Below the pieces are notes generated by a model, which saw only the letters and a list, made by a program, of their open reading frames with translations, did not search any database and was not told where the DNA came from. Shown piece after piece: positions 6,008 through 15,358 of a DNA stretch of 16,255 nt. The stretch is from a virus: the UHGV virus genome UHGV-0338003. One strand, 5' to 3'. Numbering within the stretch: position 1 is the stretch's first letter; the number at the start of each line of letters is the position of its first letter. The position numbers were made by a program, and so were the translations under genes.

Positions 6008-6346
6008 CTATTTCCCTGAATTTACGACGAAACTGTTCGAGCGGGCTGAAGCACTCATGCTCATAGCCTTCGCGGAGGTAGATAACCCGTTGTGTTTCCG
6101 GCTCCCAACGAATGACTCTGACGGGCACTCCGTAGTGATCTTTGAACCAGCGGTTAACTTGTCGCAAAGGACTGTCTCCTTCTGCCGGTTGAAATCACCC
6201 ACAGCCCACTCTGCAAAGCTGTGGGTTACAATTTCCCTGTCACCTGGTACATTTACTGCATAGCAATACTCCACCTTCGCTTTTCCACCCGGTACAGGAA
6301 GCGCAATCAGTTGCGAGCGACGGTAGTGTGTTGTTAAACTGTTCAT
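6008..6346 (-). CDS. hypothetical protein between the CII-like and replication genes, with a probable frame break
   Basis: ATG at 6346 overlaps the CII-like stop. The first 50 or so residues look protein-like, then the frame turns low-complexity, while a second minus frame over about 6003-6190 is protein-like ([42 protein letters not shown]) but has no ATG. Confidence 0.3.
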
Positions 6347-6894
6347 GCGTTAGTTTCTCCACAGTCACGACACGCCACGGCGCCCGGAGCTGCACACTCG
6401 CGGGCGTCATTACTTTCTGAAATGCAAAAAATTTTGTAGACCAGTGCTGCATGCTCCTGCAGCTTCGAAATTGAGAGGTACAGCTCGTCGTTAATTGCTG
6501 TCTTCTCATGCGGTTCCACTACACCGTCTTCAATTGCTGAACGAATCTGTTTTGAATAACTGCCGATCTGTTCAATGACTTCCAGCAGGCGCTGGTTAAT
6601 ATCGGCGTTGTCCACATCCTCGACGTCAGGAAGAGACACAAAGACGCCATTTGCAGACTGCGCCACAGCGTCAGCAATGAAGTGAGTTCCACCAGCACGT
6701 TGCAAAATCATTGCCCATCCCAGCGGGAAAATCTGATCGCCATCGGCACGAAGGCGGTTAAATAATGCGTTCTCTGTTACATCCAGCCAGTCAGCAGCTT
6801 CAGCGTACCCCCCCGGCAACGCTGCGATAGTTTTTCTGACAGCTTTCACGTACCACTCAGGCTGTTTTTCTACTTTCCAGTGATGCTTACCCAC
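6343..6894 (-). CDS. CII-like regulatory protein (phage CII/CP76-type, YdaT-like)
   Basis: 183 aa, immediately downstream of cro with overlapping start and stop. Central [22 protein letters not shown] resembles CII-family regulators. Assignment from position and memory only. Confidence 0.45.
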
Positions 6895-7147
6895 GGTTCA
6901 CCTCCTGTTCCTGTGGTTTAAACCCATTCTGATTTTGGCTAGATTGAAAACGTGCCGGATAAAGAATCTGCATTTCGCTGACTTCACCCTTAAAAAAATT
7001 GGCTAAACGTTCTGCAAGCTCGATAGATGGAATCTGCTCCAGCCTCTCAATACGACTCAACGTCGCTGGATTGACTTGAACACCCGCAGCAACATGCTGC
7101 AAAGTGAAACCATGCGCCTTACGCACATTTCGTAATGGTGATTGCAT
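6887..7147 (-). CDS. Cro-like HTH (XRE-family) transcriptional regulator
   Basis: 86 aa with HTH GFTLQHVAAGVQVNPATLSRIERLEQIPS. GGAGGA RBS upstream. Divergent from the cI gene across an operator region. Confidence 0.7.
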   Translation of the reverse strand: MQSPLRNVRKAHGFTLQHVAAGVQVNPATLSRIERLEQIPSIELAERLANFFKGEVSEMQILYPARFQSSQNQNGFKPQEQEVNRG

Positions 7148-7161
7148 ATGTCCTCCAAATA

Positions 7162-7224
7162 TTGCGCGTTATGCATGTTATTTCACGCAATTATTTTGCG
7201 CAAGTTGATTTGCTTATCACGCAA
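7162..7224. promoter_or_regulatory. OR-like operator region with three sites between the divergent cro-like and cI genes
   Basis: Three partially palindromic sites at 24-bp spacing: TTGCGCGTTATGCAT (7162-7176), CGCAATTATTTTGCG (7186-7200), TTGCTTATCACGCAA (7210-7224). Divergent promoters are implied by gene arrangement. Confidence 0.55.
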
Positions 7225-7244
7225 TAAAGAAATGTAATAAACGC

Positions 7245-7937
7245 ATGAACATAGGAAACCGAGTCAGACAACTTCGCCAAGCGAAGAACATGAAAATCGC
7301 CGATCTCGCTGAAGCAATAGGAGTAGATGCGGCGAACATCTCGCGCTTAGAAACGGGTAAGCAAAAACAATTTACCGAACAAACACTGAGTAATATTGCC
7401 AAGAGCTTAGGTGTTGATATTGCTGATCTCTTTACCTCTGCCCACAAAAGTAATACTGTATATAAAAACAGTAATAATGAGGATGTTGCGCAGGTGAAGG
7501 ATGTGTTCCGTATTGAAATGCTGGATATCAGTGCCAGTGCGGGAAATGGCCTTATCCAGGGCGGTGATGTCATTGATGTGATTCATGCCATCGAATACAG
7601 AACTGATAATGCTGTATCAATGTTCGGCGGACGACCAGCCAATCACATCAAAGTTATCAACGTTCGTGGGGACAGTATGTGTCCAACCATTGAGCCAGGA
7701 GATCTCATCTTCGTTGATGTCAGCATCAATCAGTTTGATGGTGATGGTATATATGTCTTTGGTTTTGATGACAAAATATACGTTAAAAGACTTCAAATGA
7801 TTCCTGACAAACTGCTGGTGATTTCTGATAACCAGATTTACCGTGAATGGGGAATTACTAGCGAAAACGAACACCGATTCATGGTCTTTGGAAAGGTCTT
7901 AATCAGTCAGTCGCAAACCCTTAAGAGACATAATTAA
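7245..7937 (+). CDS. CI-type prophage repressor (HTH plus S24 LexA-like autopeptidase)
   Basis: 230 aa. N-terminal HTH (MKIADLAEAIGVDAANISRLETGKQ) and a C-terminal S24 domain with GDSM serine motif and downstream KR. No obvious SD before the ATG, so possibly leaderless. Confidence 0.85.
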   Translation: MNIGNRVRQLRQAKNMKIADLAEAIGVDAANISRLETGKQKQFTEQTLSNIAKSLGVDIADLFTSAHKSNTVYKNSNNEDVAQVKDVFRIEMLDISASAGNGLIQGGDVIDVIHAIEYRTDNAVSMFGGRPANHIKVINVRGDSMCPTIEPGDLIFVDVSINQFDGDGIYVFGFDDKIYVKRLQMIPDKLLVISDNQIYREWGITSENEHRFMVFGKVLISQSQTLKRHN

Positions 7938-7957
7938 CCTCAATATCCCATCCATCG

Positions 7958-7980
7958 GCCACCGAAAGGTGGCTTTTTAT
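7958..7980 (+). terminator. intrinsic terminator after the repressor gene
   Basis: Stem GCCACC, loop GAAA, stem GGTGGC, followed by TTTTTAT. Lies 20 bp downstream of the cI stop. Confidence 0.6.
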
Positions 7981-7991
7981 TACCTATAAAT

Positions 7992-8042
7992 TTGCATATT
8001 TCGCAAAAATCACTTGCATATCTCGCAATTTAATTTTATCTT
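7992..8042 (+). promoter_or_regulatory. PL/OL-like promoter with two operator copies
   Basis: Direct repeat TTGCATATTTCGCAA (7992-8006) and TTGCATATCTCGCAA (8014-8028), same TTGC-N7-GCAA pattern as the OR sites. -35 TTGCAT at 8014-8019, 17-nt spacer, -10 TATCTT at 8037-8042. Confidence 0.4.
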
Positions 8043-8276: not shown

Positions 8277-8483
8277 ATGCACAAAACAGAACCCAAAATC
8301 GTCGCGCCTGGCTACACAGATGAGGAAATTTATGAGTGGATGACAAAGAAGCTGGCAGCTATAAACCAGCTTCGTGAAGTGCTGTCTTATCGACAGGAAA
8401 CAATAGACTCCTTAAAAAAACTGGATCAGGAAATCACGGTTTTATCACAGGATGTTACTTTAGATATTGTGCAGACAAATTAG
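8277..8483 (+). CDS. hypothetical small protein (predicted helical)
   Basis: 68 aa from the ATG at 8277, with a GAGGAG RBS 7 nt upstream. The ORF-track start at 8262 is a TTG. The 3' end overlaps the convergent 144-aa gene by 29 bp. Confidence 0.4.
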   Translation: MHKTEPKIVAPGYTDEEIYEWMTKKLAAINQLREVLSYRQETIDSLKKLDQEITVLSQDVTLDIVQTN

Positions 8484-8889
8484 GATCCCATTCATTTTCG
8501 TCAAAATCATCAAAGTGATGAATTTGTGATCTCCAGTCTCGATAATCTAAAAATTTCTGGGCGGTTACGCTTATTTTATCAAGTGTGAGTTCATCCTGAA
8601 TTGAAAGAAGAAGTTCATCAAATTTCATCTCATTAATCTGTTTTGGCATCCAGTGATGCTTCATCAGAATAAGGTGAACCAGAGCCTTTTTCCCATTCAA
8701 CTGATTATAGGGAGTGCCGAATTTCTTCCGGTGCTCATGTAAGACAAGGTCCAGAAGAGTAAGTAATGTTGCCCTTGATTCAACTTTGCTTATTTCGACT
8801 GATGACACTACCCCACTGATTTCAATGCCCCGATACTTTCCAACATTTTCACAGTGGGATTTGTACAGCGTATAGATATTACCGGACAT
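8455..8889 (-). CDS. hypothetical protein, AT-rich immunity-region moron
   Basis: 144 aa. ATG at 8889 with an AAGGA RBS on the minus strand. No recognisable family by eye. Direct repeats lie upstream. Confidence 0.5.
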   Translation of the reverse strand: MSGNIYTLYKSHCENVGKYRGIEISGVVSSVEISKVESRATLLTLLDLVLHEHRKKFGTPYNQLNGKKALVHLILMKHHWMPKQINEMKFDELLLSIQDELTLDKISVTAQKFLDYRDWRSQIHHFDDFDENEWDPNLSAQYLK

Positions 8890-9357
8890 TTCTTTTCCTT
8901 TTGCGTTGTTGGGGATAACCAGATTAACCGAATCCTTGTTGTTGGGGAATAACCAGGTCCACCTCGCCTGATGTGGCTAAAAGCAGGCACATAACAGCTA
9001 AGTATTTTCAACCAGAGAGAATCCTTAGCGTTGTGGTGAATGCGGCTCAGCGCACGCGGGTTAAGGTTGAGGCTGACAGTCGACCTTCTGTGGATACCCA
9101 CCCGCCTGGTGTGCAACCTTCGCCAGGCACCGGGAGGCACCCGGCACCACAACTTTATGCTGTGTGTAGTCCTGGCGGTACCAGCTTGTACCCTTGCTTC
9201 CGGCTGGTACCGTCCTTTTTACAAAACAGAGAAGAGCATCACCGGACGACGGGCTCATAACCCAATCCATCCGGGCGGCAGTCACCGCAGGTGTTCTTCT
9301 CTGTTTTGTGGAGAAACTAACCGACCTTGCAGGGTCGATATGATGAGGAGCAGCAAA

Positions 9358-9720
9358 ATGGCTAGCGAACGCAGTACTGATGTGCAGGCATTTATCGGGG
9401 AGCTGGACGGCGGCGTATTTGAAACCAAAATCGGCGCAGTTCTCAGTGAAGTCGCTTCCGGTGTGATGAACACGAAAACCAAAGGTAAGGTCTCGCTCAA
9501 CCTGGAAATCGAACCGTTTGATGAGAACCGTGTGAAAATCAAACACAAACTCTCATATGTTCGCCCAACTAACCGCGGGAAAATTTCCGAAGAAGACACC
9601 ACCGAAACGCCGATGTATGTCAATCGCGGTGGTCGCCTGACTATTCTGCAGGAAGACCAGGGACAATTACTGACTCTTGCCGGTGAACCTGACGGAAAAC
9701 TCCGCGCAGCAGGTCGTTAA
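9358..9720 (+). CDS. YfdP-like prophage protein
   Basis: 120 aa from the ATG at 9358, with GAGGAG 7 nt upstream. The 5' extension to 9040 in the ORF track is GC-rich and not protein-like. Directly precedes YfdQ/YfdR-like genes, as in CPS-53. Confidence 0.55.
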   Translation: MASERSTDVQAFIGELDGGVFETKIGAVLSEVASGVMNTKTKGKVSLNLEIEPFDENRVKIKHKLSYVRPTNRGKISEEDTTETPMYVNRGGRLTILQEDQGQLLTLAGEPDGKLRAAGR

Positions 9721-9785
9721 TATCGTTCGTAATAAACTGATTATTTATCTCATCACTGAATATCTTTATATAGTGAGGACTTATT

Positions 9786-10610
9786 ATGTCTCAGAACTTA
9801 GACGCAACCGCAATTAATCAAATCCATGCCCTTATTTCTGCTCAGGGTGTTAATGAAATTATCAGTAAGATTGGTGCCGATGCTGTGGCATTGCCTGAGA
9901 ATTTCCGCATTCATGATCTGGAAAAATTTAATTTAAATCGCTTCCGTTTCCGTGGTGCACTTTCCACTGCCAGCATCGATGATTTTACCCGTTATTCTAA
10001 AGATCTTGCAGATGAAGGCACCCGCTGCTTTATCGATGCCGATAATATGCGTGCCGTCAGTGTGCTTAACCTGGGTACTATTGATGAGCCAGGTCACGCA
10101 GATAACACTGCCACTCTCAAACTGAAAAAGACAGCACCGTTCTCTGCTCTGTTGTCTGTTAACGGCGAGCGTAACTCCCAGAAGTCACTGGCAGAATGGA
10201 TCGAAGACTGGGCCGACTACCTTGTGGGCTTTGATGCTAATGGTGACACCATTCAGGCAACAAAAGCGGCTGCGGCGGTCCGTAAAATCACGATTGAAGC
10301 AAACCAGACTGCTGATTTTGAAGATAATGACTTCAGCGGCAAACGCTCCCTGATGGAGTCTGTCGAAGCGAAGACCAAAGACATTATGCCAGTGGCATTT
10401 GAGTTTAAATGCGTTCCGTTTGAAGGTCTGAAAGAACGTCCGTTTAAATTACGCCTCAGCATTATCACTGGCGATCGTCCTGTACTGGTTCTGCGCATTA
10501 TTCAGCTGGAAGCGGTGCAGGAAGATATGGCTAACGAATTTCGTGATCTGCTTGTTGAGAAATTCAAGGACAGCAAAGTAGAAACCTTTATTGGGACTTT
10601 CACCGCCTGA
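9786..10610 (+). CDS. yfdQ: YfdQ-like protein (DUF2303 family)
   Basis: 274 aa with a GAGGA RBS. Recognised from memory as the conserved prophage protein encoded upstream of yfdR in E. coli CPS-53. Confidence 0.65.
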
Positions 10611-12279: not shown

Positions 12280-12486
12280 ATGCTGAACCTCGATTGTGTT
12301 CCTATCTCAACTTATTGCAAAGAAACTGGCGAAACTCCTGAAGCAATAAACAAACGTGTACAGCGCGGTGTTTGGCGTGAAGGTGTTCAGGTTTTAAAGG
12401 TTGAAGGCGTTAAGGAGAGGTGGATTGATCTTAGTGAGGTTGCAAAATGGGCCAGACAAAACTGCTCAAACTACCGCGCGGCGTAA
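12280..12486 (+). CDS. xis: excisionase-like small DNA-binding protein (Xis)
   Basis: 68 aa from the ATG at 12280, with GGAGA 5 nt upstream. Immediately upstream of and overlapping int. Basic protein with Trp residues typical of small Xis proteins. Called mainly from position. Confidence 0.45.
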   Translation: MLNLDCVPISTYCKETGETPEAINKRVQRGVWREGVQVLKVEGVKERWIDLSEVAKWARQNCSNYRAA

Positions 12487-13619
12487 CAATCAGGAAACAC
12501 CGCCAGGGAGAAACGATCAATATAACTTTCACCTACAAAGGAGTTAGATGTCGTGAGCCGCTTTCCAATCTGGAAGTAACACCAAAGAACATTAAATACG
12601 CCGAGCGTACACTCGGCGAAATCCATAATAAGATCGAAAGGGGAACATTCATTTATGCAGAATATTTTCCCCGTTCTGCTCGTTTGAAAATTTTTGGTAA
12701 TGCTGCTGCAGGCAAAACGGTAAAGATGTACCTGGACGAATATCTTGAAATCTGCGAAACAAGAAAACTTTCACCCTCTACGATTGGTGGCTATAAAAAA
12801 TGCCGTAGTGCGTTAGCCTCACTTCACATTTGCCCTGCAAGTGAATTAACACCAGCAACCCTGAAAGCGTGGATTCAAAATCAGAAAACGACCTTAAAAA
12901 CAATTCGCAACCAGTTATCTTTCCTGCGGTCAGCACTTGATGAAGCCGTGACCGATGGGGTACTTCAAATTAACCCCGTATCGTTAGTAACAGCTTCGCG
13001 CTACCAAAGTGATAAGTCAGAAGCAGAAAGCAGCTACGTAGTTGATCCGCTATCACCAGCAGAAGTTGATGCATTACTAGCAGCAGCCGGAAACAAACAA
13101 TGGGAAAATCTGTTCCGGTTCGCTATACATACAGGCCTGCGTAGTTCTGAATTATGTGCCCTTCGATGGCGTGATATCGACTTTGTTGGAAAAACTGCCC
13201 ATGTCCAGAGCGCAAGTGTTGTCGGTGTTATCAAAGGGACAAAGACAAAAGCAGGTACTCGGAAAGTTGAACTGACAGAAGAGGCAATGTTGGCGCTGAT
13301 AAATCAGAAGCCATTTACATTCATGAAGGATACTACTGTCTTTGAAGATCCAAAGACCAATAAGCCTTGGGCAAGTGCTGATGCAATCAGGAAAAAAGCA
13401 TGGGTGCCAACATTGCGAAAAGCAGGTATTCGTTACAGAAATCCATATCAAACTAGGCATACATTCGCCACCCGCCATATCAGCCGGGGAGCAAACCTGT
13501 TTTGGCTTGCAGCTCAAATGGGGCATAAAGGGCCGGAAATGTTATTTCGTCATTATGGTTCATATTTAAAGGAATATGACGGTAATACGACCAGCAATAT
13601 CACAAAAAAAGCCACTTAA
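12447..13619 (+). CDS. int: tyrosine recombinase, lambda-family phage integrase
   Basis: 390 aa. C-terminal catalytic signature: R in AIHTGLRSSEL, HTFATRHISRG, and RHYGSY with the nucleophile Tyr. Adjacent to the att-like tmRNA fragment. Confidence 0.9.
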   Translation: MGQTKLLKLPRGVTIRKHRQGETINITFTYKGVRCREPLSNLEVTPKNIKYAERTLGEIHNKIERGTFIYAEYFPRSARLKIFGNAAAGKTVKMYLDEYLEICETRKLSPSTIGGYKKCRSALASLHICPASELTPATLKAWIQNQKTTLKTIRNQLSFLRSALDEAVTDGVLQINPVSLVTASRYQSDKSEAESSYVVDPLSPAEVDALLAAAGNKQWENLFRFAIHTGLRSSELCALRWRDIDFVGKTAHVQSASVVGVIKGTKTKAGTRKVELTEEAMLALINQKPFTFMKDTTVFEDPKTNKPWASADAIRKKAWVPTLRKAGIRYRNPYQTRHTFATRHISRGANLFWLAAQMGHKGPEMLFRHYGSYLKEYDGNTTSNITKKAT

Positions 13620-14821: not shown

Positions 14822-15248
14822 TAAAAACCTTATCTTACAAATAGTTGGTAATGATGTTGAATTATTTTTTGTTCTTTATGGCTAATAAGATTACATGAAG
14901 GGACAACTTCTGACCACCTTAGAAAACACTCACTTTAGTAACAAGAGTCAATAATATTGTTGACAAATCACAAAAAAACAAACTTATCCAAAACAATCTG
15001 GTTTATCACAAAGCCTCTGTGCATAAATCTGTGCATAACATCATTTTTACACACATTTTTTTATAAAAATATTTTTTAGCAAAAAATGCTATCTATCTCC
15101 GAAACTGCAACCACAAACCATTAATTCCAAATGAAACTATTTTAAAATAAATAGTAAGACAGTAACAGGACAGAAAAAGTTCCGCAAAAGAGCCGCTTGT
15201 AAAATCAACAATATTTGGCTATTTAAATTCAATGAATTACATAACTAT

Positions 15249-15279
15249 GGACACGGGTTCAACTCCCGCCAGCCCACCA
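15249..15279 (+). other. partial tmRNA (ssrA) 3' end, candidate prophage attachment core
   Basis: GGACACGGGTTCAACTCCCGCCAGCCCACCA matches the tmRNA T-arm, acceptor 3' strand and CCA. The rest of the ~360-nt tmRNA body is absent. The sequence upstream is AT-rich phage DNA. Confidence 0.6.
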
Positions 15280-15327
15280 AAATTCTCCATCGGTGATTAC
15301 CAGAGTCATCCGATGAAGTCCTAAGAG

Positions 15328-15358
15328 CCCGCACGGCGCAAGCCCTGCGGGCTTTTTT
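15328..15358 (+). terminator. intrinsic terminator downstream of the tmRNA 3' fragment
   Basis: Stem GCCCGCA, loop, stem TGCGGGC, followed by TTTTTT. Confidence 0.5.

Follow-up and report, generated by a model that had tools for sequence, protein, structure and literature searches.

What is encoded by the DNA just upstream of the prophage gene yfdP? In the virus genome UHGV-0338003, analysed here as a stretch of 16,255 nt (hereafter, the window), the plus-strand gene yfdP is preceded by a segment that a preliminary description had presented as GC-rich and dense in hairpins. We found that this segment is non-coding and that the element upstream of yfdP is an unannotated variant within known prophage small RNA (sRNA) families, not a separate class. 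The reading that we favour, with moderate confidence, is that positions 9000-9357 are a non-coding plus-strand RNA sequence in two modules, the first being a KilS/STnc100-type sRNA unit with a terminator that would gate the genes from yfdP to int. Four points are new in this analysis: a pseudoknot in the RNA core, the connection between KilS and STnc100, an early-operon subtype of the family, and unannotated cores upstream of kilR (in the Rac prophage) and tciA (in phage P1).

The composition of the segment is indeed distinctive. In 200-nt windows, the GC content is 0.565 (9000-9199), 0.590 (9100-9299), and 0.530 (9200-9399), while the neighbouring regions range from 0.35 to 0.45 (8400-8999) and from 0.395 to 0.44 (9600-9899). 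The preliminary description was right on this point, but it placed the start of the segment at 9040, about 40 nt too far to the right. The three inverted repeats it listed all exist, with offsets of 1-3 nt: CCGGG/CCCGG lies at 9130-9134/9140-9144 (instead of 9128-9142), CGACC/GGTCG at 9322-9326/9333-9337 (instead of 9321-9335), and the terminator-like CGGTACCAGC/GCTGGTACCG at 9176-9185/9203-9212, where it is 100% complementary, extendable to 9174-9215, and followed by TTTTT (9216-9220). Larger features had been missed, namely a closing stem, a 25-nt inverted repeat, and the pseudoknot, as had the membership of the segment in a large conserved RNA family, here represented by an STnc100/PasD core fused to a KilS-type 3′ module. 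We found both excess folding of the segment and strong helix covariation across homologous prophages. The plus-strand RNA of 8990-9225 folds at −96.1 kcal/mol versus −76.5 ± 4.7 for shuffled sequences (z −4.14, 0/200) and that of 9215-9375 at −65.1 versus −42.2 ± 4.2 kcal/mol (z −5.47, 0/200); on the minus strand, 8990-9225 reaches a z of only −1.69. This strand asymmetry and the presence of G-U pairs in two of the helices described below (P0 and P4) point to an RNA of the plus strand.

A first alternative treats the segment as protein-coding DNA that is degraded or has a misassigned start, either an N-terminal extension of YfdP (9040-9720) or a frameshifted pseudogene (9033-9343). Indeed, the open reading frame (ORF) 9040-9720 (226 aa) is open, in frame with yfdP, and annotated as the coding sequence SfIV_34 in phage SfIV, and PGAP annotates 9033-9343 as a frameshifted hypothetical protein. 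Sequence evolution argues otherwise. Among 19 full-length homologues (97-100% identity), variable sites at codon positions 1, 2, and 3 number 5/8/10 in 9040-9357, with no third-position bias, versus 2/2/17 in yfdP. Insertions are present as well, of 1 nt at 9222 in one homologue and of 20-25 nt in ST64B and phiNP. The translation of 9040-9357 matched no Pfam or PHROG family, and the ORFs of the region have no Pfam match, in agreement with the earlier remark that they do not look protein-like. PHROG 204 aligns to YfdP from residue 1, which corresponds to the ATG at 9358 with its strong Shine-Dalgarno sequence, and the homology to the K-12 prophage CPS-53 starts only ~27 nt before this ATG. Furthermore, the ATG at 9040 falls within the conserved AAU junction and helix P1 of the RNA. 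The coding reading is thus refuted at the level of sequence evolution, and we consider it extremely improbable; the codon-position spread, the 1-nt insertion, and the lack of a protein-family match equally refute the earlier suggestion of a remnant of a deleted gene. The RNA core (9030-9153) is the least variable part among the close homologues (3/124 sites), below yfdP itself. The ORFs SfII_35, SfIV_34, and SfIV_35 overlie the RNA region and are probably spurious.

The centre of the first module is a pseudoknotted core of 124 nt (9030-9153, plus strand) belonging to the STnc100/PasD superfamily. The Rfam model STnc100 (RF02076) aligns to 9000-9223 over model positions 1-206 of 206, with 42.4 bits and E-values of 8.5e-8 on 701 nt and 2e-6 on the whole 16-kb window; sub-threshold matches (33-41 bits) occur at the same position in SfIV and ST64B, and also in phiES15; P1 and RCS47 likewise match the model below its threshold. 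By two exact-pattern scans of viral contigs, we collected 135 unique cores, and we built our own covariance model of the family, joint with canonical STnc100 members (R1), against which the window core scores 90.9 bits. In a scan of one genome per species, R1 confirmed cores in more than 20 Enterobacterales genera. The only core found elsewhere (87 bits) is on a 388-nt contig (L261) labelled Prolixibacteraceae bacterium JC049, from a Bacteroidota assembly, and is most likely a contamination. High-GC hits of a degenerate 20-mer scan (Actinomycetota and others) were discarded as chance, R1 giving no core there.

All members share a closing stem P0 (UGGUG...CACCA), the AAU junction, P1 (2 bp, a bulged A, 3 bp, and a UNNGC pentaloop closed by C-G), a hypervariable insert, P4, and an invariant-looking P5 (CCGGG-AGGCA-CCCGG) that abuts the 3′ strand of P0. 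In the window, the 9-bp P0 is formed by 9030-9038/9145-9153, the junction by 9039-9041, P1 by 9042-9057 (pentaloop UCAGC, bulged A9054), P4 by 9104-9111/9121-9128, and P5 by 9130-9134/9140-9144 (loop AGGCA), all on the plus strand. The core is preceded by a 5′ hairpin (8997-9029, plus strand; arms 8997-9009/9017-9029), an inverted repeat 85% complementary that is present in the minimum free energy (MFE) fold. It falls in positions 1-30 of the Rfam model, whose alignment starts at 9000, and its 3′ arm holds a degenerate boxA-like AUCCUUAGC.

The helices are supported by covariation. On a plain MAFFT alignment of 50 diverse cores, not fitted to any structure, the positions of P0, P1, and P5 are paired in 85.8% of cases versus 75.3% in shuffles (0/500), falling to 35-47% when the partners are slid. 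On 88 distinct sequences, the four nested helices are paired in 92.8% of cases versus 71.2% in shuffles (0/500) and 36-45% when slid, with changes on both sides in 21/26 pairs; this second alignment was fitted to the covariance model and leans toward the structure. In addition, the loop of P4 pairs with a segment located 3-5 nt after P1, forming a pseudoknot. Among the members, at least 11 different complementary pairs occupy these positions, among them AUCAGC/GCUGGU, CCAGUC/GACUGG, CUGGUG/CACCGG, CUAGGC/GUCUAG, CCAGAC/GUCUGG, GCCAGGUC/GACCUGGC, AGACUGACAAA/UUUGUCAGUCU, CAGUUAA/UUAACUG, and UGGUUAU/AUAACCA. In the window, AAGGUUG (9063-9069) faces CAACCUU (9114-9120) on the plus strand, and the pair is compensated in phiES15 (AAGGCUG/CAGCCUU). 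Compared with loop shuffles, the pairing is significant (p < 0.05) in 30/50 representatives (24/40 distinct loops), while the window pseudoknot taken alone reaches only p 0.07-0.1. The consensus structure line printed by cmscan for STnc100 holds nested helices only. The stacking of P5 on P0 and the CACCA motif had suggested a tRNA-like or RNase P substrate; we rejected this idea as unsupported, since no tRNA or tmRNA model matched in the region and the CCA is fully paired.

The 3′ part of the module has a different relative, the sRNA KilS of E. coli K-12. The block 9158-9178 (21 nt) is identical to KilS, and the alignment of KilS nt 35-98 to 9158-9220 gives 48/63 identities, including the first 21 positions, with a score of 61 versus 19 ± 3.3 for shuffles. 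The KilS-like portion would correspond to the 3′ two-thirds of a KilS-type sRNA. It begins with a 15-nt motif, UGCUGUGUGUAGUCC (9158-9172, plus strand), unpaired in the centroid fold, and continues in a Rho-independent terminator (9174-9220, plus strand) that starts 21 nt after P0 and consists of a 12-bp stem with one bulge (9174-9185/9203-9215), a 17-nt loop, and five U (9216-9220). The stem has changed on both sides, from CAUCAG/CUGAUG in KilS to UACCAG/CUGGUA in the window, and the annotated 3′ end of KilS is the U-run equivalent to 9216-9220. The pattern [G/U]C[U/A]GUGUG[U/A]AGUC, which represents the central part of the motif, retrieved 26 distinct modules with differing terminator stems, including the Rac types, the window type, ST64B, phiNP, phiES15, and L143. 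Base-pairing seeds are typically recognised by a single-stranded motif that stays constant next to a terminator stem that varies, which suggests that the motif is a putative seed.

Of the earlier proposal of a structured leader with a terminator or attenuator, the terminator therefore stands, being homologous to the 3′ end of KilS. The attenuator does not. In such a mechanism, mutually exclusive terminator and antiterminator structures would decide the transcription of yfdP, and a terminator does lie within a long structured leader here. Nevertheless, we found no conserved alternative pairing with the 5′ arm of the terminator, no leader peptide, and no known sensing element, and both the MFE and the centroid folds retain the terminator. 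We regard attenuation as very improbable.

The second module (9216-9357) would be the 5′ leader of yfdP. Its main feature is a long plus-strand hairpin (9216-9314) with a 25-bp stem (9216-9240/9290-9314) and a conserved branched tip; it derives from a 25-nt inverted repeat (9221-9245/9285-9309), and its 5′ arm begins with the U-run of the terminator. The hairpin is kept in ST64B (z −3.8), phiNP (z −3.6), and SfII (z −6.6). One compensatory pair was observed (9231-9299, G-C to A-U in ST64B), plus several one-sided changes, a comparative depth too shallow for a firm statement. Stems of such length are typical RNase III substrates, as in the lambda N leader, and the hairpin is a candidate site of RNase III-type processing or a candidate determinant of stability. 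A small 6-bp hairpin immediately before the ribosome-binding site (RBS), CGACCU/GGGUCG (9322-9337, plus strand), differs in sequence in ST64B, phiNP, and SfII, and is followed by the Shine-Dalgarno sequence GAGGAG (9345-9350, plus strand) and the start codon of yfdP (9358-9360).

Taken together, these features suggest the following model. Module 1 (about 9000-9220) would be an sRNA transcription unit made of the 5′ hairpin, the pseudoknotted core, the KilS-type motif, and the terminator. Transcripts entering or starting in it would mostly end at U9216-9220, giving an RNA of roughly 190-225 nt that may bind Hfq and base-pair with mRNAs through the exposed motif, as its relatives KilS, EcOnc27/STnc100, and PasD do, with the core acting as a stable, factor-binding, or nuclease-resistant body. 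Besides ending the sRNA, the terminator would be a gate in front of yfdP-yfdQ-yfdR-xis-int. On read-through transcripts, the 25-bp hairpin could be a processing or stability site for a double-strand-specific (RNase III-type) nuclease, and the small hairpin beside the strong Shine-Dalgarno sequence may partially shield the RBS as a second layer of control. We infer the expression of the RNA, its 5′ end, Hfq binding, seed function and targets, and the efficiency of the terminator, as well as cleavage by RNase III, from structure and kinship; the experimental support for an sRNA function comes from the relatives only. KilS (b4833) was found by RIL-seq, verified by Northern blot, and tested in wild type and Δhfq, and it has its own transcription start site (PMC8175672). 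STnc100 copies are expressed in lysogens of enterohaemorrhagic E. coli (EHEC), one being confirmed by Northern blot (PMC5331693), and EcOnc27, an RNA of 235/247 nt located downstream of stx2B, was crosslinked to Hfq (PMC4104026 and its supplement; PMC12711010). Expressed, Hfq-associated RNAs of about 160-250 nt have thus been shown among the STnc100-type relatives (PMC5331693, PMC4104026, PMC12711010), and a shared ancestry of PasD and STnc100 has already been proposed (bioRxiv 10.64898/2026.05.13.724894).

Several observations weigh against this model. The STnc100 score of the window is below the gathering threshold of 47 bits, and the match is absent in a gathering-mode scan, appearing only in E-value mode. 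The 17-nt loop of the terminator is unusually large. When the window was searched for targets of the 13-nt motif, its complement occurred no more than expected by chance. Neither a promoter scan nor manual inspection revealed a convincing sigma-70 promoter in 8959-9000, so that the RNA may come only from a repressible early-left promoter ~950 nt upstream, or from processing; the transcription start site of KilS has no clear counterpart in the window because the full core occupies that position. Lastly, the cores occur in two settings. Canonical cores, with P1 of the CCCCC/CCUUU type, have a terminator in 60/78 cases, usually 25-37 nt downstream, which is the arrangement of an sRNA gene. Of the cores with a GCGGC-type P1, to which the window belongs, 48/57 have no terminator and lie 20-45 nt upstream of an ORF, so the core itself may have a cis function unrelated to sRNA action. 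The ORFs behind them include kilR, a 62-aa ORF, a 283-aa ORF, tciA of P1, and small membrane proteins. The window belongs to a minority, with SfV, SfII, SfIV, ST64B, and phiES15, in which a GCGGC-type core is fused to a KilS-type motif and terminator.

This second setting is an argument for a different role, in which the core is primarily a cis-acting, aptamer-like domain of the 5′ untranslated region (5′-UTR). By binding a small ligand or a protein of host or phage origin, it would govern the early gene that follows, at the level of stability, Rho access, or translation, and the sRNA-like arrangement in the window would be secondary. The compact pseudoknotted architecture is unusual for an Hfq-dependent sRNA, and the unpaired AAU junction, UNNGC pentaloop, and AGGCA loop are highly conserved around a hypervariable insert. 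In the window, however, a terminator and about 200 nt of structure separate the core from yfdP, so the core cannot act directly on the yfdP RBS. Elsewhere, the downstream genes have no obvious common function (toxic proteins, lipoproteins, an esterase) that would suggest a ligand, the RBS of Rac-type leaders lies outside P0, and no riboswitch or ribozyme family of Rfam matched. On balance, we find this role possible but unlikely. A more speculative reading, which we also hold to be doubtful, combines the two: P0-P1-pseudoknot-P4-P5 would be a portable factor-binding RNA domain, serving both as the body of Hfq-dependent sRNAs and as a cis 5′-UTR switch, and would define a new class of dual cis/trans phage riboregulators. 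Enterobacterales prophages would then use the core in sRNAs (STnc100, PasD, the window) and in front of kilR (Rac) and tciA (P1), with RNA polymerase or Nus factors, an RNase or adaptor, or a small molecule as candidate partners. If this were true, the passage of early-left transcripts beyond the KilS-type terminator and into yfdP-xis-int would be decided in cis by the core of the window.

Returning to the sRNA reading, the source of transcription has to be considered. The early-left promoter and operators (PL/OL) are probably at 7992-8042 on the plus strand, after the cI terminator and about 950 nt upstream of the RNA, as judged from sequence motifs. A TTGCAT (8014-8019) and a TATCTT (8037-8042) are separated by 17 nt and form weak promoter-like hexamers, with only 7/12 matches to the consensus; an operator-like TCTCGCAAT lies at 8021-8029. 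The operator-like repeats of about 7990-8030, TTGCATAT(T/C)TCGCAA, resemble the two copies of TCACGCAAT in the cI-cro spacer (7160-7230), and mEp460 has the same OL/PL-like arrangement. An OL/PL at 8890-9000 was considered and rejected: the two TTGTTGGGG(A)ATAACCAG repeats found there are unlike the cI-cro operators, and operator-like sites are present at 7990-8030 instead. These direct repeats (8905-8927 and 8939-8961, spacing 34 bp) lie between the start of the ECs1072-family gene (8889) and the RNA, and may be a promoter or regulatory site for this reverse-oriented gene.

The position of the core between the inferred PL (8014-8042) and the only strong plus-strand terminator before int bears on the most interesting rival, processive antitermination in cis. 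In this mechanism, put-like or boxA-assisted and nut-like, the nascent core would act on RNA polymerase that started at the early-left promoter, modifying it to pass the 9174-9220 terminator as well as subsequent stop signals, and would substitute for the N protein that the phage lacks. Indeed, Pfam and PHROG scans of the window found no recognisable N-like gene, while Q is encoded. Between its PL region and yfdP, mEp460 has a divergent core and the same terminator but no annotated plus-strand gene, and the copies checked (window, ST64B, phiES15, P1, RCS47) are all co-oriented with the downstream genes. A boxA-like UGCUCU(U/C) occurs just 5′ of P0 in P1, L087, L067, L230, and mEp460. Conversely, canonical members end 25-37 nt past the core (60/78) and accumulate as discrete sRNAs in lysogens (PMC5331693; PMC4104026), and an efficient antiterminator would prevent such RNAs. 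Rac-type prophages place the core after the KilS terminator, not before it. R1 found nothing at E ≤ 10 in HK022 22000-34000, including the putL/putR region, and the Rfam and R1 searches gave no second core in the 16-kb window, cro-side operon included, hence none downstream of PR. The boxA/nut evidence was set aside: only some relatives have the motif, canonical and Rac-type copies lack it, and the form found in the window (AUCCUUAGC) is degenerate and predicted to pair. The cis-acting antitermination RNA envisaged in the preliminary description is thus not supported by our data, and we consider it improbable.

The two modules lie in a mosaic whose boundaries are visible by comparison. Upstream of 8959, SfV and SfII differ, and SfV has a terminator just before this point; the homology to ST64B breaks at 9014; in mEp460, cdtI, and Stx2c phages, the breakpoint is at about 9173, and the homology is limited to the terminator, the long hairpin, and the start of yfdP (9173-9360); and the homology to K-12 CPS-53 breaks at about 9339. 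SfII (L234 2501-2985) keeps the core, the terminator, and the long hairpin without yfdP and yfdQ, its leader being therefore upstream of a yfdR-like 5′-deoxynucleotidase. As the neighbours change elsewhere too, the RNA modules behave as units independent of yfdP. The order of the modules also varies, being KilS, terminator, core, and kilR in Rac, and core, KilS motif, terminator, long hairpin, and yfdP in the window.

A number of individual copies complete this picture. The Rac prophage of K-12 carries a full unannotated core (L232 6257-6398, minus strand; NC_000913, about 1418256-1418397; 77 bits with R1) between the KilS terminator and the start codon of kilR. Phage P1 carries another (L005 2995-3131, plus strand; NC_005856, about 70071-70207; 86.5 bits with R1), located in the ban operon after the reverse-oriented plp/upl genes and 37 nt before the tciA start codon. 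In RCS47, the same core precedes a gene for a small membrane protein, and there is a weak second match (L006 2305-2452). In both P1 and RCS47, the core sits between upl (minus strand) and a plus-strand gene, tciA or that of the small membrane protein; in the Cronobacter phage phiES15, it comes after cI and before kil. The divergent core of mEp460 (L008 3348-3495; 26.6 bits with R1), between the PL region and the shared terminator, has the same P0 and AAU junction, a different P1 (GCGCAGGCUGAUGCGC) and P5 (CCGG-AGAUCAGCA-CCGG), and is preceded by the boxA-like GUGCUCUCAGCG. Furthermore, four to six cores can follow one another in tandem at intervals of a few hundred nt (L017 2319-3358, minus strand; L282 3109-4493; L305 943-1996). 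Among canonical cores, arrays upstream of a nanS-p-like esterase gene reach up to four members. In the L017 array, at least two cores have their own terminators; one array is upstream of a 681-aa nanS-p-like esterase gene, and two are on plasmid pAPP145_2 of Pantoea sp. App145. With their constant scaffold and hypervariable insert, the arrays resemble a family of diversified regulators.

As for its genomic context, the window is a lambdoid prophage of E. coli of the SfV/SfIV/ST64B type. The 471 nt around the element (8890-9360) are 100% identical to many E. coli chromosomes. Used as a query, they matched 2,782/5,426 complete E. coli genomes, 1,610 of which carry most of the query, and 74 phage records; the region of the element is also present in phages SfV, SfII, SfIV, ST64B, and phiES15. 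On the basis of the RefSeq and phage annotation of identical DNA and of our own Pfam and PHROG scans, the minus strand carries the Q antiterminator (612-1370), then replication and regulatory genes, a CII-like gene (6343-6894), and a cro-like gene (6887-7147). The plus strand carries a cI-like S24 repressor (7245-7937), with its terminator directly after it (7957-7974), and a 68-aa ORF (8277-8483). The ECs1072-family gene (PHROG 5286; 8455-8889, minus strand) is immediately upstream of the RNA region, and the non-coding stretch 8890-9357 separates it from yfdP (9358-9720, plus strand), whose RefSeq start maps to 9358. Then yfdQ, yfdR, a 296-aa ORF, and an 81-aa ORF follow in this order on the plus strand, and int (12447-13619), also on the plus strand, comes after them. 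Beyond int and two minus-strand ORFs, weak Rfam matches to fragments of tmRNA (15231-15279, 14.3 bits) and IsrM (15302-15358, 31.1 bits) may mark the prophage attachment site; a second integrase is annotated just past this region in an identical RefSeq genome.

The element thus sits in the early-left arm, where lambda carries PL, nutL, and the N leader, and shares with the latter the succession of an early promoter, an RNA element, a long double-stranded hairpin, and the RBS of the first early-left gene, with a boxA-like UGCUCUU in some relatives. It differs from the lambda nut site in having no N-like ORF, no boxB-type pentaloop (the P1 loop, UCAGC, is not GNRA-like), and AUCCUUAGC instead of (C/U)GCUCUU(U)A. 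Like put of HK022, it is a structured RNA upstream of a terminator in the early operon of an N-less lambdoid phage. However, putL and putR are about 70 nt long, with two stem-loops, neither closing stem nor pseudoknot, and two copies (at PL and PR), whereas the window element has a closing stem, four or five helices, a pseudoknot, and a single copy. A short likeness between GCGGGUUAAGGUUGA and GGCGGGUUCAGGAUGA (GGGUU(C/A)AGG(A/U)UGA) was rejected as chance, as it was not reproducible, the order of elements differs, and R1 gave no match. With the C4 and IsrK RNAs of P1, P7, and Gifsy-type prophages, the element has in common that they are prophage immunity-region RNAs with a closing stem, but the Rfam models C4 (RF01695) and IsrK (RF01394) did not match in the window at E ≤ 1. 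Homology to P1 C4/immI, suggested by BLAST matches to P1 and P7, was rejected, the P1 match being between upl and tciA in the ban operon and not in immI. ST64B (L002 3409-3597, minus strand) and mEp460 (L008 823-1011, minus strand) do carry C4 (80-84 bits) and IsrK (64-67 bits) matches, in or beside Sb41/Rha-antirepressor genes of the rightward (PR) operon; the window has no Rha gene.

The closest systems are STnc100 (RF02076; EcOnc27/sRNA103 in EHEC) and PasD of enteropathogenic E. coli, with which the window shares the core architecture. The conserved blocks common to all are UGGUGAAU..., P1 with its UNNGC loop, the P4 hairpin, and CACCGGGAGGCACCCGGCACCA; an A/U-rich linker and an intrinsic terminator follow the core, and the RNAs are prophage-borne in Enterobacterales. 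The P1 stem is of the GCGGC type in the window and CCCCC in STnc100, and the 3′ module of the window is of the KilS type, unlike that of STnc100. The location differs as well: STnc100 occupies a late-region moron site near Q, stx, nanS-p, and lysis genes, whereas the window element is between cI and int, upstream of yfdP, with Q 8 kb away on the other strand.

KilS, a 98-nt Hfq-dependent sRNA from the kilR 5′ region of the K-12 Rac prophage, shares with the window the 21-nt identical block with the single-stranded motif and a homologous terminator changed on both sides of its stem. Both lie in the early-left operon downstream of a reverse-oriented gene, sieB in Rac and the ECs1072-family gene in the window, which occupies the position of sieB upstream of kilS and of upl upstream of the P1 core. 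KilS has a short 5′ hairpin where the window has the 124-nt core, and the modules are permuted, the complete Rac core following the KilS terminator and abutting kilR. This comparison joins STnc100/EcOnc27, PasD, and KilS, which had been described separately, as one modular system, and corrects annotations in which the region is nothing, spurious ORFs, or a frameshifted pseudogene. For the window, it predicts an sRNA and a terminator gate ahead of the yfdP-int operon of an N-less lambdoid prophage. For Rac, where kilR encodes a toxic FtsZ inhibitor and is normally kept repressed (PMC12711010), the conserved structured RNA directly upstream of this gene is a concrete candidate for its control.

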